The notes: generated by a model from the sequence alone, not told the origin. A DNA stretch of 64,000 bases from Candidatus Omnitrophota bacterium (GCA_016208765.1 JACQXK010000032.1:54385-118384); one strand, 5' to 3'. Positions 13,422 through 56,532 are shown, numbered from the stretch's first letter. Translations and numbers: made by a program.

Positions 13422-14705
13422 TTACGAAGTAATCGCTTTTTTCCCAATATCTCTGCGATAATGCATTCCTTCAAAATTTATTTTTCCAACTGCCTGGTAT
13501 GTTTTGTCTATGGCTTCTTTAATTGAATTGCCTAAACCGGTAACTCCTAAGACCCTGCCACCGTTAGTTATGATCTTTTCACCCATCTTCTTTGTTCCCG
13601 CATGGAAAACTACTACATCTTTTATTTTTTCCGCTTCTTCTAAACCAAAAATTTCCTTACCCTTCTCGTATTCTCCCGGATAACCCTTGGAAGAACAAAC
13701 CACGCAAACACAAGCGCGATTATCCCAGTTTAAACCTCCAAGTTTGGAAATTTTATTCAATTTCCCTTCGCTGGCTGCTAACATAACCTCTACCAAATCT
13801 GTTTTAAGCCGCGGCAGGATCACCTCTGTTTCAGGGTCGCCAAAACGCACATTAAATTCCAGGGCCTGAGGCCCGTCCTTAGTAAGCATTACTCCTGCAT
13901 AAAGAACACCGCAATATTCAATGCCTTCTTTAACCAAACCGTCAATAGTGCGATAAACAATTTTTTCTAAGATCTCTTTAAATAATTCCGGAGTTACTAT
14001 CGGAGCCGGTGAATATGCGCCCATTCCTCCGGTATTTGGCCCTGCATCATTATCAAAAATACGCTTATGATCCTGGCTGGAAACCAAAGGGATTACTTCT
14101 TTAGAATCAGTAAAAACTAAAATTGAAGCTTCCTGCCCGTCTAAACAATCCTCAATAATTATTTTGTTCCCGGCATCCCCAAAAACACGCTCTTGCATAA
14201 TCTTTTTTATGGCCTCAACCGCCTCAGAGATGCTCTTTGCAACCACAACTCCCTTACCGGCAGCCAGCCCGTCGGCTTTGACCACACAAGGCATGCTTCT
14301 ATTTTCAACATGATTAATCGCGGCAGCAACATCATCAAAAATCTTAAAAGCAGCTGTTGGCACATTATATTTGGCCATAATCTGCTTGGAAAAAACCTTG
14401 CTTGCTTCTAATTGCGCGGCTTTTTTCTGCGGGCCGAAAATGCGCAATTTCGCTTTTCTAAATTCATCAACAATCCCAGCAGCAAGAGGCGCTTCCGGAC
14501 CTACAACTGTCAGGTCAATCTTCTCTTTACGACAAAATTGCAACAAGCCCTCTATATCATCAACTTTTATATCCATACATTCAGCCAAAGCGGATATCCC
14601 GCCATTTCCCGGAGCACAAAAAATCTTATCCGTTAATTTTGACTGCGCGATTTTCCAAACAAGCGCGTGCTCCCGACCACCAGAACCAATCACTAAAACT
14701 CTCAT
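13422..14705 (-). CDS. purD: Phosphoribosylamine-glycine ligase
   Basis: MRVLVIGSGGREHAL... ATP-grasp fold. Confidence 0.9.
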   Translation of the reverse strand: MRVLVIGSGGREHALVWKIAQSKLTDKIFCAPGNGGISALAECMDIKVDDIEGLLQFCRKEKIDLTVVGPEAPLAAGIVDEFRKAKLRIFGPQKKAAQLEASKVFSKQIMAKYNVPTAAFKIFDDVAAAINHVENRSMPCVVKADGLAAGKGVVVAKSISEAVEAIKKIMQERVFGDAGNKIIIEDCLDGQEASILVFTDSKEVIPLVSSQDHKRIFDNDAGPNTGGMGAYSPAPIVTPELFKEILEKIVYRTIDGLVKEGIEYCGVLYAGVMLTKDGPQALEFNVRFGDPETEVILPRLKTDLVEVMLAASEGKLNKISKLGGLNWDNRACVCVVCSSKGYPGEYEKGKEIFGLEEAEKIKDVVVFHAGTKKMGEKIITNGGRVLGVTGLGNSIKEAIDKTYQAVGKINFEGMHYRRDIGKKAITS

Positions 14706-14912
14706 AATTTTTTATAATATTACTTCCTTAAGTATGACTTGGGCTGATTTCGAGCAGCACGTTAGAAAACTCTTGCGGGCACGGTTGCCCTGCTATATCG
14801 TAGCCAGGCAGAGCAAGAGTTTTCGCTCGAGCGAAGCCCCGACACGCTGGGTCGGGGCAAGCGGTGCTGCGAGAAACAGACCAAGACAAAATTCATTCAA
14901 ATATAATATTAC

Positions 14913-15806
14913 TTATTTAGAACTTTTTATTTCTTTCTCTTCTTTTCTTAACGGCAAAACTCCCGCCATTTCCCCGACCACGTTCACTAACTCAGTTCCC
15001 GCAGGAATCACTATTTTAGCATTATTCTCCAAAGATTTTTCCACTGCCTCAAGCTTTCTTAAAACTTGTGCGTTTCCAACAAAAAACTTCTCTGCAGCCT
15101 CATTTACCAGCTTAATTGCTTCAGACTCGCCTTCTGCCTGCAAGATACGCGCCTGCTTAATACCTTCTGCTTTCTTAATCTCAGCCCTCTTCTGGCCATC
15201 GGCAGCAGTTTCTGTAGCAGTGGCATAATCTACGGCAGCAATCTTTTCATTTTCTGCCTTAACTACTTTATTCATTGTTTCCTGCACATCCTTAGGCGGG
15301 TCAATTTCTTTTAATTCGGTCCTAACAATCTCTAACCCCCAGCTGGAAGTTTCTTCACAAAGTGTACGGTGCAATTCCGCATTAATTTTACCTCTTTCAC
15401 TGTTTGCAGACTTTAAAGTAAGGGTTCCAATAATATTTCTCAAAGTAGTACGAGCTAAATTCACAATCTGCCACTGATAATTGTTTACATTATACTGTGA
15501 GCTTTTAACACTTGTTTCATCTGCTTTAACCTTAAAATAAACCTGCGCATCTACTTTTGCATTCAAATTATCATTAGTGATAATTTCCTGCGGCTCAGCA
15601 TCTACCATCTGCTCAGTAGTGTTTACTAAATAAATATGCTCAATTACAGGCATAATCCAGTTAAACCCAAGGTTTGCAAAACGATTATACTTTCCCAATC
15701 TTTCAATTAAACCTCTATGTGTAGGACGAACAATCCTAATCCCCATAAAAAAAACAACTATTACAGCAGTTACTGCGGAAAATAAAACATTCATTTCTGC
15801 CTCCAT
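14913..15806 (-). CDS. SPFH/band-7 (stomatin/prohibitin-like) membrane protein
   Basis: N-terminal transmembrane helix, an SPFH core (IVRPTHRGLIERLGKY...) and a C-terminal Ala/Glu-rich coiled coil. Confidence 0.75.
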   Translation of the reverse strand: MEAEMNVLFSAVTAVIVVFFMGIRIVRPTHRGLIERLGKYNRFANLGFNWIMPVIEHIYLVNTTEQMVDAEPQEIITNDNLNAKVDAQVYFKVKADETSVKSSQYNVNNYQWQIVNLARTTLRNIIGTLTLKSANSERGKINAELHRTLCEETSSWGLEIVRTELKEIDPPKDVQETMNKVVKAENEKIAAVDYATATETAADGQKRAEIKKAEGIKQARILQAEGESEAIKLVNEAAEKFFVGNAQVLRKLEAVEKSLENNAKIVIPAGTELVNVVGEMAGVLPLRKEEKEIKSSK

Positions 15807-15821
15807 TTATTGAGCAAAAAC

Positions 15822-16859
15822 CTAAATTATTTCTACTTCTTTTCTTCCTTTAACAACTTCGCCAATGATCCACGATTTTAGCTTCATCTGCGCCAATCTT
15901 TGCATTATTTTTCCCGCTGAATATTCTTTTACAATTAAGACCATGCCGATACCCATATTTAATGTGTGATACATTTCTTTATCAGCAATGCTGCCTTTAT
16001 TTTGAACGAGTTTAAAAATCGCCGGCACCGGCCATGAATTCTTCTTAATTACCACATTAAGACTATCGGGTAAAATACGGGAAATCTTGTCATAAAAAGC
16101 GCCGCCTGTGATGTGGGATATACCTGTGATTGTCGCCGGTCTCCGGTCGCCTGTTGCCTGTTGCCGGTCGCCTGTCGCCTGTAAGAGAGATAAAACCGGC
16201 TTAACATAAATACGAGTTGGACGAAGAAGTTCACTGCTCATTCTCTTCTGCTCAGCCAAAGATAATACCTTGCGTACCAAAGAATACCCATTAGAATGCA
16301 GCCCATTTGATTCCAGCCCAATTACAACATTACCTTGTTCAATTAGCTTGCCGTCAATGATCTTGCTGCGCTCAACCACCCCCACGCAAAACCCCGCCAC
16401 ATCATAATCATCTTTTTTATACATCCCGGGCATTTGCGCAGTTTCTCCGCCGATCAAAGAACACCCTGCCTCAATGCATCCATTATTGATGCCCTTTACC
16501 AAATCCAGCAATATTTTCTCCCCCGCATTACTATGGGCAATATAATCAAGAAAAAATAAGGGCTCAGCTCCTGTACATAAAATATCATTTACATTCATCG
16601 CCACAGCATCTATGCCGACAGTATCATGTTTATTGGCTAAAATAGCGATCTTGATTTTCGTGCCGATGCCGTCTGCCGAAGAAACTAAAACCGGCTCTTT
16701 AAAATTACGGGAAGGAAATTTAAAAAAACTTCCAAATCCTCCGATATCAGTTAAAACCTCCGGGCGAAAGGAATTGCGCACCAATGATTTTATCTTGCCC
16801 TTGAAAAACCCTGCAGCCTGAATGTCCACGCCTGCATTCTTATATGTAACTTTTTTCAT
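15822..16859 (-). CDS. purM: Phosphoribosylformylglycinamidine cyclo-ligase (AIR synthetase) with a repeat-encoded loop insertion
   Basis: PurM signatures (VGIDAVAMNVNDIL...HITGGAF). An extra LLQATGDRQQATGDRRPAT loop is encoded by the GC-rich heptanucleotide repeat. Confidence 0.9.
   Translation of the reverse strand: MKKVTYKNAGVDIQAAGFFKGKIKSLVRNSFRPEVLTDIGGFGSFFKFPSRNFKEPVLVSSADGIGTKIKIAILANKHDTVGIDAVAMNVNDILCTGAEPLFFLDYIAHSNAGEKILLDLVKGINNGCIEAGCSLIGGETAQMPGMYKKDDYDVAGFCVGVVERSKIIDGKLIEQGNVVIGLESNGLHSNGYSLVRKVLSLAEQKRMSSELLRPTRIYVKPVLSLLQATGDRQQATGDRRPATITGISHITGGAFYDKISRILPDSLNVVIKKNSWPVPAIFKLVQNKGSIADKEMYHTLNMGIGMVLIVKEYSAGKIMQRLAQMKLKSWIIGEVVKGRKEVEII
16131..16185. repeat. Heptanucleotide tandem repeat (CGCCTGT/ACAGGCG)n, ~7 units, in frame inside purM
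   Basis: Plus strand: ggtcgcctgttgcctgttgccggtcgcctgtcgcctgt. It is GC-rich against the AT-rich genome and translates as QATGDR repeats. Confidence 0.8.
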
Positions 16860-16886
16860 TGTATTTTACCTTCCCGATTAAACTCT

Positions 16887-18329
16887 CTAAATCCCGCCCT
16901 GCCCGCAGCAACGCGCCTCAAGAGAAAATTTTCCCTGCATCTTCTCAGGTAAAATCGGATAATTTCCAGTCCAACACGCGGTACAGTTGTTTTTTCCATT
17001 ATCCTTAAAACACCCAAGCATCCCTTCCAGGCTCAAATAGCCGAGGCTGTCCACATCCAAATATTTTCTTACCGCATCAAGCGATTCATATTTATTGGCA
17101 ATCAGTTCGCTTGAACGGTGAAAATCAATGCCATAAAAACAAGGGAATTTATGCGCCGGGCATGATATTCTCAAATGCACCTCTTTTACCCCGGCCCTGC
17201 GCAAATTACGCACACGAATCTGCGAGGTAGTGCCGCGCACAATAGAATCATCCACCACTACAATACGCTTACCTCTTAAAACATCCTTTAAAATATTAAA
17301 TTTAACTTTTACCCCTAAGTCGCGTGTATCCTGCGCAGGCTGTATAAAGGTCCTGCCCACATAATGATTGCGGATAATCCCCATCTCAAGAGGAATCTTT
17401 GATTCCTCAGAATAACCGAGTGCCGCAGAAAACCCTGAGTCAGGCACCGGCACAACAAAATCCGCCTTTACCGGATACTCCCTGGCAAGCTGTGCGCCTA
17501 ATTTACGCCTGACAGTATGCACAGTCTGTCCGAAAACCATAGAATCCGGGCGTGAAAAATAAACATGCTCAAATGTACAATGAGAATATTTAGTACAAAG
17601 CTGCAGCTCTTTTGGTTTTACCGAACGAATGCTGTCTTTTTTTATAATTACGATTTCTCCCGGCTCCACCTCGCGGACAAGGCGCGCTCCGATCAAATCA
17701 AAGGCACAGGTTTCAGAAGCAAGGCACCACGCATTTCCAAGCTTCCCCAAAACAAGCGGGCGGAAACCAAAAGGATCCCTTACCCCTACGAGGCTTTCAG
17801 AATCCATCAAGATCAAAGAATAAGCCCCCTTAATTTTCTTAAGCGCATGTACTAAACTTGTAACCAAATTTAACGACCTGCTGCGCGCCATAAGATGGAT
17901 TACAATCTCTGAATCAGTAGTGGTCTGAAAAATAGAGCCGCTTTTTTCAAGCCCCTGGCGAAGCTCAAGTGAATTTACAAGGTTACCGTTATGCGCGATA
18001 CAGATTGAACCCTTGGCATAATCAATTAAAAGCGGCTGCGCATTTTTTAGGACACTGGAACCGGTAGTTGAATATCGCACGTGTCCGCATGCAGCAGTGC
18101 CTTTTAAGCTACTTAGGACATGTTCATCAAATACATCGCTTACCAAACCCATGTTTTTATGAATATTTAAAACGCCTTTATTATTAACAACTATGCCGCA
18201 AGCCTCCTGCCCCCTGTGCTGAAGCGAATACAAGCCAAGGTAAGTGAGCCAGCTTGCCTGCTTATGATTTATAATTCCAAACAGGCCGCAATACTCGTTG
18301 GCTTGGTCATCATAAATTATTTTTCGCAT
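16887..18329 (-). CDS. purF: Amidophosphoribosyltransferase (with a short propeptide before the catalytic Cys)
   Basis: CGLFGI N-terminal nucleophile motif, a PRTase motif (VVVDDSIVRGTT) and a C-terminal Cys cluster. Confidence 0.9.
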   Translation of the reverse strand: MRKIIYDDQANEYCGLFGIINHKQASWLTYLGLYSLQHRGQEACGIVVNNKGVLNIHKNMGLVSDVFDEHVLSSLKGTAACGHVRYSTTGSSVLKNAQPLLIDYAKGSICIAHNGNLVNSLELRQGLEKSGSIFQTTTDSEIVIHLMARSRSLNLVTSLVHALKKIKGAYSLILMDSESLVGVRDPFGFRPLVLGKLGNAWCLASETCAFDLIGARLVREVEPGEIVIIKKDSIRSVKPKELQLCTKYSHCTFEHVYFSRPDSMVFGQTVHTVRRKLGAQLAREYPVKADFVVPVPDSGFSAALGYSEESKIPLEMGIIRNHYVGRTFIQPAQDTRDLGVKVKFNILKDVLRGKRIVVVDDSIVRGTTSQIRVRNLRRAGVKEVHLRISCPAHKFPCFYGIDFHRSSELIANKYESLDAVRKYLDVDSLGYLSLEGMLGCFKDNGKNNCTACWTGNYPILPEKMQGKFSLEARCCGQGGI

Positions 18330-19119
18330 ATTCCACTCCATTCTTAATAATTAAGAAACCGCTGCCTTGTTTCTCCGGCTCATGGGCCGGATGCTGCCAA
18401 GAAAACGCGTGGCGCTCAGGATGCGGCATCAGGCCTAAAATCCTGCCGGTATCGTCACAAATCCCGGCGATATTCTCAACTGAACCATTGGGATTATCAG
18501 GATAACCGCTTAAATTTCCCTGTTTGTCGCAATATTGAAAAACAACCTGCCCTCTCTTATTTAAACTCTCTAAAACCTGTTTGTCCTTAGTAATAAATTT
18601 TCCTTCTCCATGAGCCACTGGGAGATAAATAGTTTCTGGTAAATTCTTAGCCCAGATACACTTTACCTGCGACAGGCGACCGGAGACAGGAGACAGGCGA
18701 CTATTAACCGGTGACTTTAAATAAATCCAGCGATCTTCAAATTTTCCTGAATCATTAATAATTAAACTTACTTCTTGGGTGAAGTTTTCATTACCCGGCA
18801 ACAGCCCTGCTTTAACTAAAATCTGGAATCCATTACAAATGCCTATGATCAGCTTGCCGGAAGAAATAAATTCCTTTATATCGCCTGAAAGTTTAAATTT
18901 TAGTTCATTTGCCAAAACCTTTCCGGCACCCAAATCATCCCCATAGCTGAATCCTCCGGAAAGGGCCAGGATTTGATACTCCTTAAGGCTCTTTTGTTTA
19001 CTGCAAAAAGCATTAATATGCACGAATTCCGCCTGAGCACCCGCTTTCTCAAAACTAAAAGCGGTTTCCTTGTCGCAATTGGTCCCGGCTGTTCTTAGGA
19101 TACAAACCTTTGGCTTCAT
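18310..19119 (-). CDS. purQ: Phosphoribosylformylglycinamidine synthase, glutaminase subunit (PurQ) with a repeat-encoded insertion
   Basis: Class I glutamine amidotransferase triad context (GICNGFQ, HPE). Carries a SPVNSRLSPVSGRLS insert. Confidence 0.9.
   Translation of the reverse strand: MKPKVCILRTAGTNCDKETAFSFEKAGAQAEFVHINAFCSKQKSLKEYQILALSGGFSYGDDLGAGKVLANELKFKLSGDIKEFISSGKLIIGICNGFQILVKAGLLPGNENFTQEVSLIINDSGKFEDRWIYLKSPVNSRLSPVSGRLSQVKCIWAKNLPETIYLPVAHGEGKFITKDKQVLESLNKRGQVVFQYCDKQGNLSGYPDNPNGSVENIAGICDDTGRILGLMPHPERHAFSWQHPAHEPEKQGSGFLIIKNGVEYAKNNL
18667..18715. repeat. Heptanucleotide tandem repeat (GACAGGC)n inside purQ, in the opposite genomic orientation to the purM copy
   Basis: Plus strand: gcgacaggcgaccggagacaggagacaggcgac. 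Translated on the minus strand as SPVSGRL repeats. Confidence 0.8.
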
Positions 19120-19781
19120 CTTTTGTAAAACTTATTAATCACATCCACCACTTCTCTTGGCTTATCCACCACTTTAAAAATATCCAAATCTTTCTTGCTG
19201 ATATTTGCGTTCTTTTCTAAAACAGTTTCTTTTAACCAGTCCAGCATCTTTTGCCAATAGTCCCTGCCGAATAACACTACGGGAAACCTCGGTATCCTGC
19301 GTGTTTGGATCAAATTAATTGCCTCAAAAAATTCATCAAGCGTGCCGTAACCTCCGGGCATAATCACAAACGCCTTGGCATATTTAACAAACATAACCTT
19401 GCGCACAAAAAAATAATGAAAATCAACCAGGGTATCCACGTATTCATTTGGCTTCTGTTCAAGAGGAATTTGAATGTTTAATCCGATAGACTGGCCCTTT
19501 GCCCGGCGAGCGCCTTTGTTTGCCGCTTCCATAATTCCAGGGCCGCTTCCTGTAATTACCGCATAACCTGCCTTGGCAATTAAATATGCTGTCTCCTCTG
19601 CAAGTTTATAATATTTTGCGTTAACAGGAGTGCGGCTTGAACCAAAGATAGAAACTGCCCTGCCCACATCAGACAAAACTTCAAACCCATCAACAAACTC
19701 CGACATGATCCTGAATATCCGCCACGGATCCTCATGAATAAAATCGTCTTTGACAATTTCTTTTTTATTTCTTTTTACCAT
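19116..19781 (-). CDS. LOG-family protein (TIGR00730-type nucleotide 5'-monophosphate nucleosidase / Rossmann-fold lysine-decarboxylase-like)
   Basis: LOG motifs VFGSSRT...GGGxGxMEA and PGGYGTLDE. Start chosen at MVKRN, immediately after the purL stop. Confidence 0.65.
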   Translation of the reverse strand: MVKRNKKEIVKDDFIHEDPWRIFRIMSEFVDGFEVLSDVGRAVSIFGSSRTPVNAKYYKLAEETAYLIAKAGYAVITGSGPGIMEAANKGARRAKGQSIGLNIQIPLEQKPNEYVDTLVDFHYFFVRKVMFVKYAKAFVIMPGGYGTLDEFFEAINLIQTRRIPRFPVVLFGRDYWQKMLDWLKETVLEKNANISKKDLDIFKVVDKPREVVDVINKFYKR

Positions 19782-22741
19782 GCTAAAGGATCCCTCCATG
19801 CCTTTTTTAATACACCGATACCTGCTGATATGCAAATCTTTCCATCAAGCCCGTAAACCCTGAATTCCTTTTTCTCTGATATGCAACCTGCCAATCCAAA
19901 GGAAATACCTTTTAGAATATTTTCAAATTTATTCTGATCCTTTTTTTCCACCTCCACAATAAACCGCGAGTTTGATTCCGAAAAAAGAATTACATCATTT
20001 CTTTGTTCTTCACTTTTAGATTTTTTGTTTTTAGTTTTGCGCTTTTCGCTTTGCGCTTCTACATATGGAATTGCACTAACAACCAACTCCATCCCCAGCC
20101 CGCCGGAAAATGCCATCTCTGCTGCTGCCACTGCAATACCGCCCTCTGAACAATCATGCATTGCCATGATTAATTTTAAATCCGAAGCCTTGCTTAAAGC
20201 ATTAAAAGTAGCAAGGGCTTTTTTTGCAAAAACCCTGGGGACATCATTACCCAAATACCCTGCCAAATCATAATAATGCGAACCGCCCAATTCCGGTAAA
20301 GTATTGCCCACAACATAAATTAAGTTTCCAGGCTTCTTTGCATACATAGACACAACTTTGTCCGTATCATCCATTACTGAAATAGCAGATATTAACAGAG
20401 TTCCTGGAATAGCAATAGAATGCCCATGCACTGCGTATTCATTATATAAACTGTCCTTACCGGAAATGAAAGGAACACCAAAGACCTTTGCAATATCATA
20501 ACATCCGTAAGCCGCACGCACCAAACTACCAAGCCTATCCGGCTTATCAGGATTTCCCCAGCAGAAATTATCTAAAATAGCAGTCTGCTTTAAAGAACCT
20601 CCCACTGCAACCACCTGCCGCAAGGCCTCATCAATCACCGAAGCAGACATCCAATAAGGATCAATCATTCCAAAACGAAAATTAATTCCATTAGAAACAA
20701 TAACGCCTTTTTTTGAACCTAAAAGCGGCTTGACTACGCTGGCATCAGACGGGCCATCATTAACAATCCCTGTTAATGGTTTTAAAACCGAGCCCCCTTG
20801 CACCTCATGGTCATACTGCCTGATCACCCATTCCTTAGAACAAATATCATAATGGCCCAATAAGCTAATCAGGCTTTTAGTTAAATCCTTAGGGCAATTT
20901 ATTTTCGGCTCACGATGGTTGTTTAAAACAAACATTGCTTTCTTTTCTATCTCGGGTATGCCGTCGTGCAGGAATTTCATACCCAAATCACAAACGAGAT
21001 TACCTTTATAATAAAGCTGAAGTTTCTCTGTATTGGTAAACTCGCCGATTACACTCGCCTCAACATTTTCAGCCGCAAAAACAGCCAATAGTTCCTCAGC
21101 CTTGTCAGGGCTGACTGAAATAACCATTCTCTCCTGTGATTCAGAGATCCAGATTTCCATATAAGAAAGCCCCGAATATTTTAAAGGGACTTTTTCCAAA
21201 TCAACTCTTACTCCCAGCTCAGCGCCCATCTCTCCAACTGCGCTTGATAATCCACCTGCGCCGCAATCAGTAATTGCAGTGTAAAGATTCTTATCGCGCG
21301 CCTGCAAGATCGTATCTACCATCTTCTTTTCCTGAATCGGATTTCCGATCTGCACTGCCCCGCTTGAAATCACTTCTGATTCATGGGTCAGTTCTCCTGA
21401 AGAAAATGTCGCTCCATGGATGCCGTCTCTGCCGGTCCTGCCGCCGACAACCACAACCAAATCTCCCGGATTGGTCTTCTTAAATGATTTATCTTTGGGC
21501 ATAATCCCGGCGGTGCCGCAATAAACAAGCGGATTACCCACAAAACCTTCATGAAAAAGTATTGCACCGTTTATTGTAGGAATGCCCATTTTATTGCCAT
21601 AATCACGAACGCCGCTGACTACACCCTTCATTACCCTTTTTGGATGAAGACTTCCCTGAGGAACTTTGCTAAACGCCGTGTCCGGAGAAGCAAAACAAAA
21701 TACGTCGGTATTAAGAATAGGCTTTGCGCCTAAGCCTGTTCCCAAAGGATCTCGGATCACTCCACCCACACCGGTATTTGCCCCGCCGAACGGCTCAAGC
21801 GCCGACGGGTGATTGTGCGTCTCAACCTTAAAACAAACATTATGTTTTTCGTCAAAACGAATTACACCGGAGTTATCCTTAAATACAGATACACACCAAG
21901 GTTTATTTAATTCCCTGGTAACTTTCATAATTGTTGATTTTAACAGATTATCAATTTTCCTGATCTTTCTATTCTCTGTATTCTTTTCTCTGTATTCTAT
22001 CTTCCCTCTGAATGTCTTATGATAGCAATGTTCCGACCACGTCTGGGCAATAGTTTCCAACTCGCAATCTGTGGGATTACGGCCTAATACCTTAAAATAT
22101 TTCTTTATCTGGCGCATTTCATTTAAATTTAAGAATAGCTGCCCTTGCTTACTAATATGCATCAACTTATTATCGCTGGCATTCAATAAATCAACATTGA
22201 TTAACTTAAACGCATAACTAATCTCCGCCTTATCTGGTGACAGGTGACAGGTAACAGGCGACAGGCGACCGGTGACAGGCGACACAAGATGCTGAATTAA
22301 TTTATTATAAAGTAATTTTTCAGAGATTGTTTTAAGCTGGGCTTCGGTAAGCTTTCCTTTAATCAGATATTTTTTTGAGGTTTTTACTGAAGTTATGCCG
22401 TTAATTCCCAAATCCATGATGCCTTTTAAAGCCGAATCCTCAACAGGATCCATTACTCCGGGATTATGAGCAACTTCAATAGTGAATTCGTCCCCGGTCG
22501 CCTGCCTGCGGCCGCCGGTTAATGCATTAACAGAAAAGTCCTGGGAAATCTTATCGGTGAGTAGTTCTTCGCAAATAGTTTTAAGTTCTTCTTCAGAAAC
22601 ATACCCCTCTAAAATATAAACCTGGGCAAAATGCACGCCGGAAACAGAATCAATTCCGAAATCAGAAATATCCCTCTTAATGCCGTCACCAACAGCATCA
22701 AAGATTCCCGGCTTATCTTTAACTTCAATTTTATAAAACAT
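19775..22741 (-). CDS. purL: PurS-PurS-PurL fusion: FGAM synthase large subunit with two N-terminal PurS-like domains, both carrying repeat-encoded inserts
   Basis: 988 aa. The first ~240 aa contain two PurS-like domains, followed by a canonical PurL (AIR-synthase-related duplicated domains). Repeat-encoded inserts: LTGGRRQATGDEF and LVSPVTGRLSPVTCHLSP. Confidence 0.85.
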   Translation of the reverse strand: MFYKIEVKDKPGIFDAVGDGIKRDISDFGIDSVSGVHFAQVYILEGYVSEEELKTICEELLTDKISQDFSVNALTGGRRQATGDEFTIEVAHNPGVMDPVEDSALKGIMDLGINGITSVKTSKKYLIKGKLTEAQLKTISEKLLYNKLIQHLVSPVTGRLSPVTCHLSPDKAEISYAFKLINVDLLNASDNKLMHISKQGQLFLNLNEMRQIKKYFKVLGRNPTDCELETIAQTWSEHCYHKTFRGKIEYREKNTENRKIRKIDNLLKSTIMKVTRELNKPWCVSVFKDNSGVIRFDEKHNVCFKVETHNHPSALEPFGGANTGVGGVIRDPLGTGLGAKPILNTDVFCFASPDTAFSKVPQGSLHPKRVMKGVVSGVRDYGNKMGIPTINGAILFHEGFVGNPLVYCGTAGIMPKDKSFKKTNPGDLVVVVGGRTGRDGIHGATFSSGELTHESEVISSGAVQIGNPIQEKKMVDTILQARDKNLYTAITDCGAGGLSSAVGEMGAELGVRVDLEKVPLKYSGLSYMEIWISESQERMVISVSPDKAEELLAVFAAENVEASVIGEFTNTEKLQLYYKGNLVCDLGMKFLHDGIPEIEKKAMFVLNNHREPKINCPKDLTKSLISLLGHYDICSKEWVIRQYDHEVQGGSVLKPLTGIVNDGPSDASVVKPLLGSKKGVIVSNGINFRFGMIDPYWMSASVIDEALRQVVAVGGSLKQTAILDNFCWGNPDKPDRLGSLVRAAYGCYDIAKVFGVPFISGKDSLYNEYAVHGHSIAIPGTLLISAISVMDDTDKVVSMYAKKPGNLIYVVGNTLPELGGSHYYDLAGYLGNDVPRVFAKKALATFNALSKASDLKLIMAMHDCSEGGIAVAAAEMAFSGGLGMELVVSAIPYVEAQSEKRKTKNKKSKSEEQRNDVILFSESNSRFIVEVEKKDQNKFENILKGISFGLAGCISEKKEFRVYGLDGKICISAGIGVLKKAWRDPLAW
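22236..22285. repeat. Heptanucleotide tandem repeat (GACAGGY)n, ~7 units, in frame inside the second PurS-like domain of purL
   Basis: Plus strand: ggtgacaggtgacaggtaacaggcgacaggcgaccggtgacaggcgacac. Confidence 0.8.
22492..22520. repeat. Short, degenerate copy of the same GC-rich heptamer repeat inside the first PurS-like domain of purL
   Basis: Plus strand: ccccggtcgcctgcctgcggccgccggtt, encoding RRQATGD. Confidence 0.55.
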
Positions 22742-39318: not shown

Positions 39319-40589
39319 TTTGCTATCTCCAATTTTGCCCTTTTAATCGTCTGCACTAACCTTCTTTTTGCAGGACAGACATAATTACAAATACCACACT
39401 CAATGCAATCAGCTGCCCCATAATCTTTTGCCTGCTGCCACAGAGACTTTTCAGAAGAAAGATTGATCAGGCACGGCATTAATCCTGCAGGGCACTCCCT
39501 GACACAGGCTCCGCAGCGAATACAAAACTCCTCTTCCAAAACCCGAGCCTCTTTTTCATTAAACAACAGGACTCCGCCGGTTGATTTAATCACCGGCACA
39601 TCATCTGTGTATTGAGCAAGCCCCATCATGGGCCCTCCGATAATGATTTTAGCCGGCCTTGTTATCATTGGCCCGCAATAATTGATCAACTCTTTGATCG
39701 GTGTCCCGATACGCACAAGCAAATTCTTAGGATTAACCACACAACTTCCTGTAACTGTTACCACCCGCTCATATAACGGCTTAGCCAAATATACAGCCTC
39801 ATAAATAGCATAAATTGTAGCAACATTCTGCACTACTACGCCTGCGTCAAAAGGAAGTTTTCCTCTTGGGACTTCTTTATGTAAAACATTCCTGATTAAC
39901 TGCTTTTCTCCGCCCTGAGGATACTGGGATTTTAAAATGCTTATCGCATATCGTTTATCGCATATCAACTGAAACTGCTTGATAGCTTCGGGTTTATTAT
40001 CTTCAATTGCAATATAAATATTTTTTGCGCCAACGCACTTGGCAGCCAATTTTATCCCGGCAATGATTTCTTTGGTTTTTTCAATCATCAAACGGTTGTC
40101 GCTATTTAAAAACGGCTCACATTCTGCGCCATTAACAATCAAAGTATCAACCGGTTTTGGCGGATTTAATTTAATATGTGTGGGAAAACTCGCCCCTCCC
40201 ATTCCCACAATCCCGGCTTCAAAAACCATGTTACGGATTTGTTCGGCAGTAAGACTATCAACCTCGGCTTGCCCCTTGGGATTTGCGGCTTGCAGCTTAT
40301 CAGAGCCATCACCTTCTATCACTATTGCCTTACACCTGCCTAAAACTGGATGCGGCCAATCCTGTATAGCTGTAACCTTACCGGATATTGAAGCATGGAT
40401 CCTCGCATGCACATGCGCCTGAGCAGAAGCTACCAACTGTCCTCTTACCACCTCATCACCAACCTTAACCTCCGGAACACATATTTTACCCAAATGCTGG
40501 CTCAAAGGAATATAAACCTTTTTAGGTAAAGGCAATGCTTCAATAAGCTTATGCTCTGTCCTATCCTTACACTCTGCTAATCTAACCAT
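39315..40589 (-). CDS. rnfC: Rnf complex subunit C
   Basis: RnfC/NqrA-like N-terminus, GAECEPF, and two C-terminal 4Fe-4S motifs. Confidence 0.85.
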   Translation of the reverse strand: MVRLAECKDRTEHKLIEALPLPKKVYIPLSQHLGKICVPEVKVGDEVVRGQLVASAQAHVHARIHASISGKVTAIQDWPHPVLGRCKAIVIEGDGSDKLQAANPKGQAEVDSLTAEQIRNMVFEAGIVGMGGASFPTHIKLNPPKPVDTLIVNGAECEPFLNSDNRLMIEKTKEIIAGIKLAAKCVGAKNIYIAIEDNKPEAIKQFQLICDKRYAISILKSQYPQGGEKQLIRNVLHKEVPRGKLPFDAGVVVQNVATIYAIYEAVYLAKPLYERVVTVTGSCVVNPKNLLVRIGTPIKELINYCGPMITRPAKIIIGGPMMGLAQYTDDVPVIKSTGGVLLFNEKEARVLEEEFCIRCGACVRECPAGLMPCLINLSSEKSLWQQAKDYGAADCIECGICNYVCPAKRRLVQTIKRAKLEIAK

Positions 40590-48451: not shown

Positions 48452-48485
48452 AAAAATGCCGAGGGAGGGAATCGGACCCCCCACG
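48452..48485. repeat. 35-nt direct repeat copying the 3' end of tRNA-Phe (att-like footprint)
   Basis: aaaaatgccgagggagggaatcggaccccccacgc is identical to 48608-48642, which covers the T-arm and acceptor 3' strand of the tRNA plus a 5-nt trailer. Confidence 0.6.
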
Positions 48486-48502
48486 CGTCGCTCGCGCGAC
48501 TC

Positions 48503-48590
48503 GCTCCTTAAGAGGGGGCAGGCCCCCTCTTAATATTCTCCCCCAAACGTGGGGAAACTTTTTCCCCACACCCCTTTGGCGTGGGGTGTC
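48503..48590. repeat. Hairpin repeat element R1 (aagagggggcaggccccctctt ... tttttccccacaccccttt)
   Basis: Shares a 29-nt and a ~20-nt block with a second copy at 48770-48840. Confidence 0.5.
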
Positions 48591-48613
48591 TCAACTAACT
48601 TGCTTTTAAAAAA

Positions 48614-48685
48614 TGCCGAGGGAGGGAATCGGACCCCCCACGCCGGCCTTTTCAGGGCCGCGCTCTACCACTGAGCTACCTCGGC
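48614..48685 (-). tRNA. tRNA-Phe (anticodon GAA)
   Basis: Minus strand GCCGAGGTAGCTCAGTGGTAGAGCGCGGCCCTGAAAAGGCCGGCGTGGGGGGTCCGATTCCCTCCCTCGGCA forms a cloverleaf with a GAA anticodon. Confidence 0.8.
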
Positions 48686-52538: not shown

Positions 52539-52947
52539 CATCTGGGCCTGCCTCCAATCCGGAAAAGATAATCTTGGCAATGGATTCTTTTGAATACGTG
52601 CTTTGAGATACTATCTCAACCTGGGTTTTTCTTGACGAGAGTTCGTTAAAGAATATGCCGACAGGAGTCGTATCAGTTTCAGAAACATAAAACGCGATCA
52701 ACTGTTTCTTGGGTTCTTCAGCATAAATATAACAACCGTTTTCTTTTAAAATATCCTTAACCTTATTGTAACAAGTATTGTAATCATAATCAAAGATCTT
52801 AAACAAGGCATACTGGCGGTTTTCCTCCAAAACCTTGGTAGAAATCCCGGCAATACCTTTTGCCGTTTCTTTCATGCTTGCGCATCCGCACAACCCAATA
52901 ACCCAACAACCCAATAACCCGATAACCATGATCTTTTTTCTAAACAT
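52516..52947 (-). CDS. Hypothetical lipoprotein whose signal peptide is encoded by an 8-nt tandem repeat
   Basis: MFRKKIMVIGLLGCWVIGLCGCAS. The hydrophobic core is encoded by (ACCCAATA)x4.5 on the plus strand at 52886-52925. Confidence 0.4.
   Translation of the reverse strand: MFRKKIMVIGLLGCWVIGLCGCASMKETAKGIAGISTKVLEENRQYALFKIFDYDYNTCYNKVKDILKENGCYIYAEEPKKQLIAFYVSETDTTPVGIFFNELSSRKTQVEIVSQSTYSKESIAKIIFSGLEAGPDGKKELVN
52886..52925. repeat. Octanucleotide tandem repeat (ACCCAATA / TATTGGGT), ~4.5 units
   Basis: Plus strand: acccaataacccaacaacccaataacccgataacc. Confidence 0.7.
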
Positions 52948-56272: not shown

Positions 56273-56487
56273 CGATAAAGGTCGTTGCTTAGCTACCTTC
56301 ATCACTTCCTTCGACAACCCAGCCACCATATTACCTCTCCCGTGCCTAACTATCCCCTGCTACAGTTTCCGGATACGGCTTCGTAAGGTAATTTAGGTCT
56401 GTGGCTTTGCGCCCCCATCTTTCAATGTACGCTAAACTTCTCAGCGTATCCGCGCGAACGCACCTCGCGGAGGTTTACCTTTATCGG
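56273..56487 (-). ncRNA. Candidate structured small RNA (~215 nt) closed by a 12-bp terminal inverted repeat and followed by a terminator
   Basis: gccgataaaggt at the 5' end pairs with acctttatcggc at the 3' end. The interior is GC-balanced with several hairpins and no ORF. A terminator lies immediately downstream on the minus strand. Its identity is unknown. Confidence 0.2.
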
Positions 56488-56532
56488 CAATATAAGTATA
56501 CAATATAATTATTTCTATTTCAAGGACACAGC

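Follow-up and report, generated by a model that had tools for sequence, protein, structure and literature searches.

Imperfect tandem arrays of a GC-rich heptamer, (GACAGGC)n or its complement (GCCTGTC)n, lie in frame inside three purine-biosynthesis genes, purM, purQ and purL, in a 64,000-nucleotide stretch of DNA from a Candidatus Omnitrophota bacterium (GCA_016208765.1 JACQXK010000032.1:54385-118384), the whole of which is called the window here. The explanation that we favour, with confidence slightly better than even, is that these are non-triplet microsatellite cassettes in permissive protein loops, with their frame held by selection and their sequence renewed by slippage and by copying between sites. 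Its observed base is as follows: dozens of lineages have cassettes at matching protein positions, the cassette sequence is replaced much more quickly than the flanks are, and all copies observed are in frame. In addition, units and even whole imperfect cassettes are common to different sites of one genome, in both orientations. In persisting at the same sites across the clade while their units change, the arrays behave like a microsatellite rather than a transposon copy.

Tandem arrays were called with Tandem Repeats Finder (TRF), with composition-preserving shuffles as the null. The minus strand is the coding strand for purM, purQ and purL, and each open reading frame (ORF) is uninterrupted across its arrays. 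The three genes and their GACAGGC-type cassettes are as follows.

15822..16859, minus strand: purM (AIR synthetase), ORF of 345 amino acids (aa), Pfam AIRS and AIRS_C
16131..16185, minus strand: PurM-loop heptamer cassette (TRF 16131-16182, period 7, 7.4 copies, 82% matches)
18310..19119, minus strand: purQ (FGAM synthase glutaminase subunit), ORF of 269 aa, Pfam GATase_5, 1.2e-78
18667..18715, minus strand: PurQ-loop heptamer cassette (TRF 18671-18701, 4.4 copies; 7 units counting degenerate ones)
19775..22741, minus strand: purL, a PurS-PurS-PurL fusion, ORF of 988 aa, with four cassette sites
22492..22520, minus strand: purL site 1, PurS1-PurS2 linker, aa 74-84, a degenerate cassette read directly
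22236..22285, minus strand: purL site 2, linker after PurS2, aa 153-169 (TRF 22236-22284, 7.0 copies)

The sense strand of the purM cassette reads ACAGGCG ACAGGCG ACCGGCA ACAGGCA ACAGGCG ACCGGAG ACCGGCG ACA and encodes QATGDRQQATGDRRPAT. TRF also detects in it a 21-nt super-period, (ACAGGCG ACAGGCG ACCGGCN) x 2.5 with 83% matches. The purQ cassette has the opposite orientation, with the sense strand GTCACCG GTTAATA GTCGCCT GTCTCCT GTCTCCG GTCGCCT GTCGCAG. In purL, site 1 reads ACCGGCGGCCGCAGGCAGGCGACCGGGGAC (peptide TGGRRQATGD) and includes GCCGCAGGCAGG, which is similar to one arm of a palindrome of relatives, CCTGCCTGCCGGCAGGCAGG. Site 2 reads GTCGCCT GTCACCG GTCGCCT GTCGCCT GTTACCT GTCACCT GTCACC (peptide SPVTGRLSPVTCHLSP) and has 19 nt in common with the purM cassette (CCGGTCGCCTGTCGCCTGT), inverted. 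A GACAGGC-type unit is common to four sites of the window, all of them in coding sequence, and a two-unit pattern with up to two mismatches finds 11 matches, every one in the purM, purQ and purL arrays, against 0.23 expected (0 of 100 shuffles reach 11).

TRF, direct reading and the ORFs agree with an earlier note, made from the sequence of this stretch, on where these arrays lie and on their being read in frame. The readthrough peptides are LLQATGDRQQATGDRRPATIT in purM, SPVNSRLSPVSGRLSQ in purQ, and VSPVTGRLSPVTCHLSP and GGRRQATGDEF in purL. The two peptide families that had been described are likewise borne out by the coding strand, which carries ACAGGCG-type units (QATGDR) in purM and the short purL tract and the complement units (SPV.GRL) in purQ and the long purL tract. 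The placing of the purL arrays inside PurS-like domains was mistaken. Pfam assigns the PurS modules to aa 4-72 and 86-151, followed by FGAR-AT_linker, AIRS and AIRS_C, so that the arrays at aa 74-84 and 153-169 follow each PurS module and are inter-domain linkers, not insertions within domains. The absence of stop codons in both orientations is not special: when repeated in tandem, 50% of all heptamers lack a stop codon in every one of the six frames, and 38% do so if the GC content is that found here.

An assembly chimera had been named as what could undo the observation, and the chance of such an artefact is minute. Over 15463-22010 and 14806-17922 the window is matched at 100% identity by Logan contigs of the runs SRR12113402 and SRR12113406. 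As these spans cover the purM and purQ arrays, which two assemblies from different runs thus reproduce exactly, an artefact is practically excluded there. Arrays at matching positions in relatives, always in frame, come from dozens of JGI, NCBI, ENA and Logan assemblies. Nothing was found in favour of an artefact; one Logan contig ends at 22010, by a third purL site, which could be repeat-induced fragmentation.

The tract had also been described as unlike anything else in the window and as confined to one operon. Both statements are contradicted by further short-period arrays.

21967..22000, minus strand: purL site 3, aa ~248-259 (TRF period 14, 2.4 copies, 90% matches)
20013..20058, minus strand: purL site 4, aa ~895-910 (TRF rows 20014-20038, 20036-20058 and 20013-20058)
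39939..39966, minus strand: RnfC/RsxC cassette, outside the pur operon (TRF 4.0 copies, 76% matches; Pfam RnfC_N and Complex1_51K)
52892..52927, minus strand: octamer array (TRF period 8, 4.5 copies, 89% matches; sense ATTGGGTT)

Two of these had been overlooked within purL itself: site 3, with sense GAATACAGAGAAAA GAATACAGAGAATA and peptide EYREKNTENRK, and site 4, which consists of two abutting heptamer arrays with the sense units GCGCAAA and ACTAAAA (peptide EAQSEKRKTKNKKSKSEE). The RnfC cassette has the sense unit GATAAGC x4 and encodes ICDKRYAIS; being outside the pur operon, it speaks against confinement, as do period-7 arrays across relatives. The octamer array encodes MVIGLLGCWVIGLCGC, the hydrophobic core of the N-terminal signal peptide of a putative lipoprotein (152 aa), and possibly belongs to the same class as the heptamer cassettes.

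Metagenome contigs scanned with the PurM protein yielded 80 loci, with orthologs of 68-74% identity, which together with the window and one NCBI relative make 82 loci (given L numbers below) and 866 kb in all; the data per genome are fragments of 1-64 kb. The closest NCBI relative of the window is L123 (GCA_016214325.1), and L204 is a syntenic relative at ~83% nucleotide identity; no other locus is closer to the window than these two. In this set, 160 tandem arrays reach three copies or more. Their period is 7 in 104 cases and 8 in 21, where the shuffles yield 1.4 and 2.0. Near-perfect 21-nt segments number 40 at lag 7 and 13 at lag 8, with 0-1 at other lags except 14, the double of 7. Most of the heptamer arrays (86 of 104) lie inside ORFs of at least 100 aa. 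A loose pattern, RACMGGN x4, was also scanned against genome contigs; the matches listed were mostly cyanobacterial or other, with no Omnitrophota among them, and served solely as a comparison set of low-GC genomes of other phyla. In a stricter test, 47 of 64 heptamer arrays (73%) fall inside long ORFs here, compared with 12 of 192 (6%) in that set.

When these arrays are mapped on the proteins of the window, they recur at the same positions. About 38 loci carry 7- or 8-nt arrays at PurM aa 225-228, about 20 related loci at PurQ aa 133-142, 2-5 related loci per site at PurL aa 72-81, 150-154, 243-248 and 888-902, and 11 loci in the hairpin at PurD aa 368-373; the window itself has a tract at all four PurL sites and none in PurD. 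Arrays occur at purL site 1 in L145, L162 and L195, at the position of site 3 in L145, L146, L162 and L169, and at that of site 4 in L145, L162, L169 and L133. The unit is what varies. TACGCAA, GGTACGC, ACTATCG, GCTTCAG, AAGCTCC, AAAAGTC, TAGTTCA and others are found in different lineages, with a GC fraction of ~0.13-0.83, and in some lineages 8-mers replace 7-mers at the same sites. A GC-rich unit, as first reported, is thus a property of this lineage and not a general trait. The search of related metagenome-assembled genomes (MAGs) that had been suggested, made here on contigs, has turned up period-7 arrays at recurring protein positions, and the suggested comparison with orthologs that lack the insert found array-less PurM and PurQ proteins, the latter with shorter loops. 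As an observation in its own right, between the genes of relatives an array is often followed by its approximate reverse complement (L162 13622-13724; L134 9882-9963; L175 6780-6907; L146 12996-13073), and such pairs could form long hairpins built of repeats.

The positions appear to be permissive ones, putatively surface loops and inter-domain linkers of conserved proteins. The PurM cassette occupies the entire variable segment that lies between the conserved motifs PVLSLL and I(K/T)GI(A/S)HITGG, and the PurQ cassette the segment between YL(K) and KC(V/I)W. What stands opposite these segments in the solved structures of PurM (2z01, the best solved-structure match of the window protein, E = 2.5e-96) and PurQ (3d54) is in each case a short variable stretch. 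This placement was made by alignment to orthologs and to PDB 2z01 and 3d54; an AlphaFold2 model of PurM (18-sequence alignment, mean pLDDT 42.8) was discarded. The alignments thus agree with the initial proposal that the inserts map to loops, the PurM one just before the HITGG motif, and extend it to linkers. Among the 40 PurL orthologs displayed, the PurS1-PurS2 linker is hypervariable, with 7-aa-periodic peptides; a protein-level scan of PurL orthologs for 7-aa periodicity was uninformative because a cassette is no longer than about 1.5 peptide periods. Hypervariability is also seen in 98 RnfC orthologs, in the segment between EAIKxF and (V/I)LKS, as in NYELRVTGYELR and SSELRAPSSELK, with 236 identities at lag 7 and 29-135 at other lags.

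Cassette length changes in steps of three units, that is 21 or 24 nt, or +7 or +8 aa. At purL site 2 the window has seven units and L204 four, a difference of exactly 21 nt with the frame kept, the one clean length difference seen among relatives; most other differences between these two are replacements too complex to score. At site 4 the window exceeds L204 by 30 nt. Between L186 and L142 the difference is exactly three 8-mers. PurM loops fall into classes of 12/13, 19/20 (21 with 8-mers) and 26/27 aa, and RnfC segments cluster at 21-23, 28-30 and 35-36 aa. PurQ loops are 21-22 aa long without an array, 26-29 aa in array-bearing orthologs and 35 aa in the window. Genic arrays have 3.0-5.0 copies, save for the 7.0 and 7.4 of the window, compared with up to 8.7 copies in arrays outside ORFs and a median of 4.9 (90th percentile 10.7) in the set from other phyla. 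The 21-nt super-period of the window purM array is the mark of a 3-unit in-frame duplication. The arrays of about seven units in the window thus represent the 4.x copies typical of the clade plus one 3-unit duplication.

This step size bears on the earlier suggestion that the tracts are slipped-strand contingency repeats. If they were, the arrays would be kept because one-unit slippage reversibly switches purine genes in what would be a host-dependent bacterium. Some features would suit such a role. The unit is always 7 or 8, never 6 or 9, many arrays in relatives are perfect, the arrays are concentrated in one pathway, and it is the repeat structure, not the sequence, that is conserved. Furthermore, purF of L123 (480-520) is split by a 13-nt tandem duplication (AGGAAAGCGCATT x2), whereas purF of the 96.6% identical L204 is intact; null alleles of the purine pathway therefore do occur and are in principle reversible. 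Contingency loci in sequenced isolates are, however, commonly in the off state, and none of 209 genes is split between frames (82 purM, 35 purQ, 41 purL and 51 purD, counted as assembled sequence in independent assemblies). The arrays have only 4-5 copies and are often imperfect (66-100% matches; 82-83% in the window), which implies low slippage rates. They lie in the middle of genes or towards the 3' end (aa 895 of 988 for purL site 4), and one gene may have as many as four sites, which would make a poor switch. At purL site 2 the clean difference amounts to 21 nt exactly and keeps the frame, and cassettes are carried by RnfC and a MiaB-like gene too. Phase variation is thus not supported by the assembled sequences, and we regard it as improbable.

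Turnover at these sites is evident between close relatives. L134 and L203 are 95.2% identical over 7 kb, and their sole large difference is the PurM loop, which holds a perfect (TTACGAG)4.9 in the former and no array in the latter. A sliding divergence profile of this pair shows no clear recombination tract past the purM cassette, so that it speaks neither for nor against import by homologous recombination. L145 and L146 (89.5% identical) have their purQ and purM cassettes in common and differ at purL sites 1-3 and in purD, and only L145 has an array at purL site 4. More generally, PurM cassettes differ by three unit positions, or in period, already at 3-8% protein divergence outside the loop. 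L123 and L204 show the same substitution in two adjacent units, which is concerted change.

Units are also shared within genomes. The mean distance between units is 2.45 within a genome and 3.10 between genomes (permutation p <= 2e-4), and 26% of unit pairs within genomes, compared with 4.6% between them, have at most one mismatch. In L162 an imperfect array of 24 nt is identical at purL site 4 and in purM, the purL site 4 array of L145 equals its purQ array, and a single 8-mer occurs in purQ and purM of L195, its orientation reversed from one to the other. The window and L204 have the purQ cassette in opposite orientations. In L148, the clearest case, a 57-nt string, CTATCCGCTATCCGCTATC-CCTGCCTTGCCGGCAGGCAGG-CGCTATCCGCTATTAAA, is identical in the PurM loop and in a MiaB-like gene and encodes LSAIRYPCLAGRQALSAIK in both proteins; in the MiaB-like protein it sits in the linker from the UPF0004 to the radical-SAM domain. 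The same MiaB-like gene has a second, perfect heptamer array, AGAGAAC x4.9, at L148 910-943 (peptide ENREQRTENREN).

These comparisons also speak to whether the encoded peptides or the nucleic acid itself could be under selection. Tunable flexible loops or linkers, or shared tags, for instance in PurS-PurL-PurQ assembly, could be favoured, and hypervariability itself could be selected. Two of the sites do join domains within a fusion protein, the L148 copy likewise stands between two domains, loop lengths are kept in narrow classes, and one peptide recurs in several enzymes of a genome. The sense peptides are hydrophilic, and more so than the antisense readings (Kyte-Doolittle -0.82 vs 0.09, p = 0.0015). 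Nevertheless, close relatives show no conservation whatever of the peptide sequence, the same DNA gives unrelated peptides in its two orientations, close relatives manage without a cassette (L203, L186, and L146 at site 4), and selection on linkers does not account for a 7-nt period in DNA. A selected protein function thus has little probability in our view. Pairing of inverted cassettes in operon mRNA or DNA (purL site 1 with site 2, purQ with purM), regulating expression or recombination, is less probable still, indeed very improbable. In the RNA fold predicted for 22225-22530, sites 1 and 2 form a long-range stem of ~24 bp with each other (z = -2.7), and intergenic arrays of relatives are often adjacent inverted pairs. 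That z-score, however, follows trivially from two inverted arrays, and orientation is not conserved: the site 1 and 2 units of L145 and L162 are non-complementary, purQ and purM of L126 have the same orientation, and complementary cassette pairs are already largely absent among the clade genomes examined. Rfam gave no match in the pur operon at the gathering threshold and none at E <= 1 in 14650-14960. A function for the predicted RNA pairing between the two purL sites was rejected on the grounds that relatives do not conserve the orientation relationship.

A further layer is added by micro-palindromes nested in the arrays. PurM loops of 26-27 aa (L139/140, L141, L147 and L148) hold heptamer arrays of four different units, all interrupted by one palindrome of 20-21 nt, CCTGCC(T)TGCCGGCAGGCAGG, whose translations PCLAGRQ and LPAGQAG also occur in RnfC and PurL orthologs. 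L123 and L204 carry a different hairpin, of 22 nt (GCCCCTCGACTGGGCTCGGGGT), at the place of the three extra units of the window. At L123 5742-5764, between a Sua5/YciO-LMWPc gene and rpiB, a 23-nt hairpin (TTAAGCCCGGATTTTGCAACGGG) with TTAA at both ends is present that is absent in L204; it looks like a very small mobile element with a presence/absence polymorphism. The window itself has at most a decayed tract resembling half a palindrome, at 22492-22520.

Such elements bring active transposition into consideration, the main rival to template switching or short-tract conversion as a means of copying. In this case an enzyme encoded elsewhere would transpose the cassettes, or composites of cassette and palindrome, the conserved sites would be preferred targets, and the system would resemble RPE, REPIN/RAYT or cyanobacterial SDR elements. 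The 57-nt composite in two unrelated L148 genes, in the same frame, points this way, as do the single palindrome within arrays of four units and in RnfC and PurL orthologs, the TTAA-bounded hairpin of L123, and the occurrence of both orientations, with the purQ cassette flipped between the window and L204. By inspection, however, no target-site duplication, terminal inverted repeat or shared flanking motif was seen around the heptamer arrays. Units of one genome resemble one another, yet as a rule are not identical. The unit is, in several loci, a continuation of the codons that flank it, and alleles lacking an array retain about one unit, as expected for expansion and contraction in place. 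A dedicated mobile mini-element therefore seems unlikely to us, if deserving of attention. The earlier note had offered a small mobile or recombination-seeded insertion, like the RPEs of Rickettsia, as its alternative; the recurring cassettes, both orientations, the 57-nt identity, presence and absence, and the variable loops support that idea in its main points, and what does not fit is that the arrays are direct repeats and not palindromes, are far shorter, and keep their sites while their units change.

It can be envisaged that the favoured frame-held microsatellites arise and persist in the following manner. A typical cassette is a tract of ~30-50 nt in which a 7-nt unit, or in some lineages an 8-nt unit, stands in tandem, and it is translated with the protein. 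Replication slippage or template switching with a strong preference for 7-8 nt would make and renew the arrays. As the sharing of cassettes across sites and orientations requires an additional copying step, nearby cassettes may be copied into one another by microhomology-mediated template switching or short-tract gene conversion, which could have placed GACAGGC at four sites of this operon. Purifying selection would then act as a frame-lock, removing the common one-unit slips as lethal or costly and letting only rare 3-unit events survive, and arrays could in this way persist at about 4.x or 7.x copies. Only positions that tolerate extra hydrophilic residues would keep arrays, in keeping with the more hydrophilic character of the sense peptides, and the cassettes would be neutral or selfish passengers, not switches.

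Several points weigh against this account. A rise from 1.x to 4.x copies in one step is unlike classical slippage. Wholesale replacement, seen as a different unit, a period of 7 vs 8 nt, and the flipped purQ orientation between the window and L204, is hard to obtain by slippage alone, and the added copying or recombination step is one that we infer and do not see directly. The frame evidence consists of assembled sequences, so frameshifted alleles might exist at low frequency, and the putative assignment to loops has alignments as its basis. The restriction to periods 7 and 8 is left without an explanation. Moreover, a neutral process filtered by tolerance would not predict the 17-fold cassette density in purM, purQ, purL and purD (3.41 per 10 kb vs 0.20 in neighbouring ORFs, a ratio inflated by resampled orthologous sites), and purF and purB (87 kb) are without any cassette.

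A more novel reading is that a clade of Omnitrophota has a specific process that writes and rewrites 7-8-nt cassettes at fixed sites of core proteins, copying whole cassettes across genes and orientations. It could be a dedicated template-switching, targeted-insertion or retro-copying activity, and we give it a low, though not negligible, probability. If true, the cassettes would amount to a built-in system of protein loops with hypervariable sequence, or to a device that gives purine synthesis evolvability at the level of the pathway, and not to passive microsatellite debris.

When the cassettes are placed beside known repeat systems, each offers a partial likeness. The nearest by unit are the heptanucleotide simple sequence repeats (SSRs), for example the cyanobacterial STRR, GGGNATC of Xanthomonas and Nostoc, and TAACTGA of Beggiatoaceae. 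Heptanucleotide SSRs are the commonest long SSR in many bacteria (PMC4679880, PMC4692102). Over-representation of heptamers and a preference for four units have been reported, with 68-93% of arrays intergenic (PMC4692102), and polymerase slippage has been proposed as their cause, according to the summary of Mrazek 2007 in PMC4679880. The cassettes resemble these SSRs in their tandem 7-nt units with at least three copies (7.4, 4.4 and 7.0 in the window), typically about 4-5, and in having many arrays per genome with genome-specific unit families, the latter found here in the distances of 2.45 vs 3.10 from fragments of 1-64 kb per genome. They are unlike them in location, 73% being genic here vs 94% outside long ORFs in the comparison set, and in standing at positions kept by the clade, in frame, with 3-unit steps. 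Positionally conserved arrays in housekeeping enzymes are not described in PMC4692102 or PMC4679880.

Like RPEs, the cassettes recur in frame at unrelated sites of one genome, in loops and linkers, and are present or absent among orthologs (L134/L203; L145/L146 at purL site 4; array-less PurM and PurQ). RPEs are roughly 100-150 bp palindromic elements of fixed sequence, akin to miniature transposable elements with inverted repeats (MITEs), selfish and in frame within protein-coding genes; they are dispersed, occur in permissive protein parts of essential genes, and are present or absent between orthologs. The cassettes, unlike RPEs, are direct repeats of 29-55 nt with no inverted termini visible in the sequences, and their sequence changes by lineage while the site stays. 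The SDR elements of Nostoc punctiforme, reportedly described by Elhai et al. in 2008, are said to be mobile palindromic or hairpin elements of 21-27 nt, often nested in tandem heptameric repeats. The palindromes of 20-23 nt inside heptamer arrays of relatives and the 23-nt hairpin present in L123 and absent in L204 would match that description; the phylum and the sequences differ, and the composites here are in coding sequence and translated.

Contingency loci, the SSR-mediated frameshift switches of Haemophilus, Neisseria and Campylobacter, share with the cassettes a non-triplet unit inside an ORF whose gain or loss by one shifts the frame. Their tracts are long and near-perfect and lie close to the 5' end of genes that typically belong to the surface or restriction-modification kind, whereas the cassettes show no frame-shifted alleles, low copy number, 82-83% matches in the window, and positions from aa 74 to 910 of housekeeping enzymes. 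Finally, the Borg elements of Methanoperedens reportedly have perfect tandem repeats in ORFs with a unit length divisible by three (Schoelmerich et al. are said to have described this in 2023). These too are fast-evolving repeats that create new peptide segments in ORFs; the units here are unlike them in being 7 or 8 nt, with the frame kept only through multiples of three units.

Heptamer arrays and in-frame selfish repeats are thus each known, and their combination here is new in the literature searched, which gave no description of translated, positionally conserved, 3-unit-quantised non-triplet arrays that are copied between genes and contain nested micro-palindromes. A search for heptamer or tandem repeats in Omnitrophota found nothing relevant. 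The combination is of interest as non-triplet microsatellites are expected to be purged from essential genes, yet here they persist at fixed positions of core enzymes across a clade. They offer a natural system for how reading-frame selection shapes repeat dynamics, the 3-unit quantisation being suggestive of a frame-lock effect, and for how very short sequences are copied between genes without an obvious transposase and new protein loops and linkers arise from repeat DNA. In practical terms, cassettes make divergence look larger than it is, fragment short-read contigs, and can misdirect both the alignment of orthologs and the quality checks of Omnitrophota MAGs. Interest would rise sharply if a dedicated mechanism or an on/off function were shown.

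Some minor observations concern the pur genes themselves. A LOG/'lysine decarboxylase'-family gene (SLOG cluster 4) at window 19116-19835 lies between purL and purQ and overlaps both, an arrangement conserved in L001 and L204. A second purF-like gene, ~30% identical to PurF, stands directly upstream of purF in ten loci (L133, L135, L139, L157, L162, L165, L187, L191, L199 and L202). In L151, purM has an in-frame TGA for a conserved Lys codon near the DKEMYH motif (GCCGAGTGAGAAATG), which could reflect a pseudogene, an error or recoding.

On the strand opposite to the pur genes, at window ~14730-14900 (plus strand, between band7 and purD), there is a GC-rich, structured-looking element that has no Rfam family match. 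It is also found at L131 12981-13156, L137 13343-13513 and L149 4451-4523. The copies in relatives have 10-nt terminal inverted repeats, TTTAGCGGGT...ACCCGCTAAA, around a variable core (73-176 nt), L152, L182 and L202 each have two occurrences of the 5' motif, and the window copy is without the outer stem. It could be a MITE-like element or an undescribed RNA.

Elsewhere in the window, a 35-nt copy of the 3' part of a tRNA stands ~160 nt from the tRNA gene 48614-48685 (48452-48533, 48609-48685, 48781), and a 29-nt GC-rich hairpin repeat (TCCTTAAGAGGGGGCAGGCCCCCTCTTAA) occurs twice in the same region; together these may be remains of integration at the tRNA. Matches to the c-di-GMP-I riboswitch above the gathering score lie on the minus strand at 806-934 and 56310-56489, the second of which spans 180 nt against a model of 87 positions and thus indicates a large insertion.

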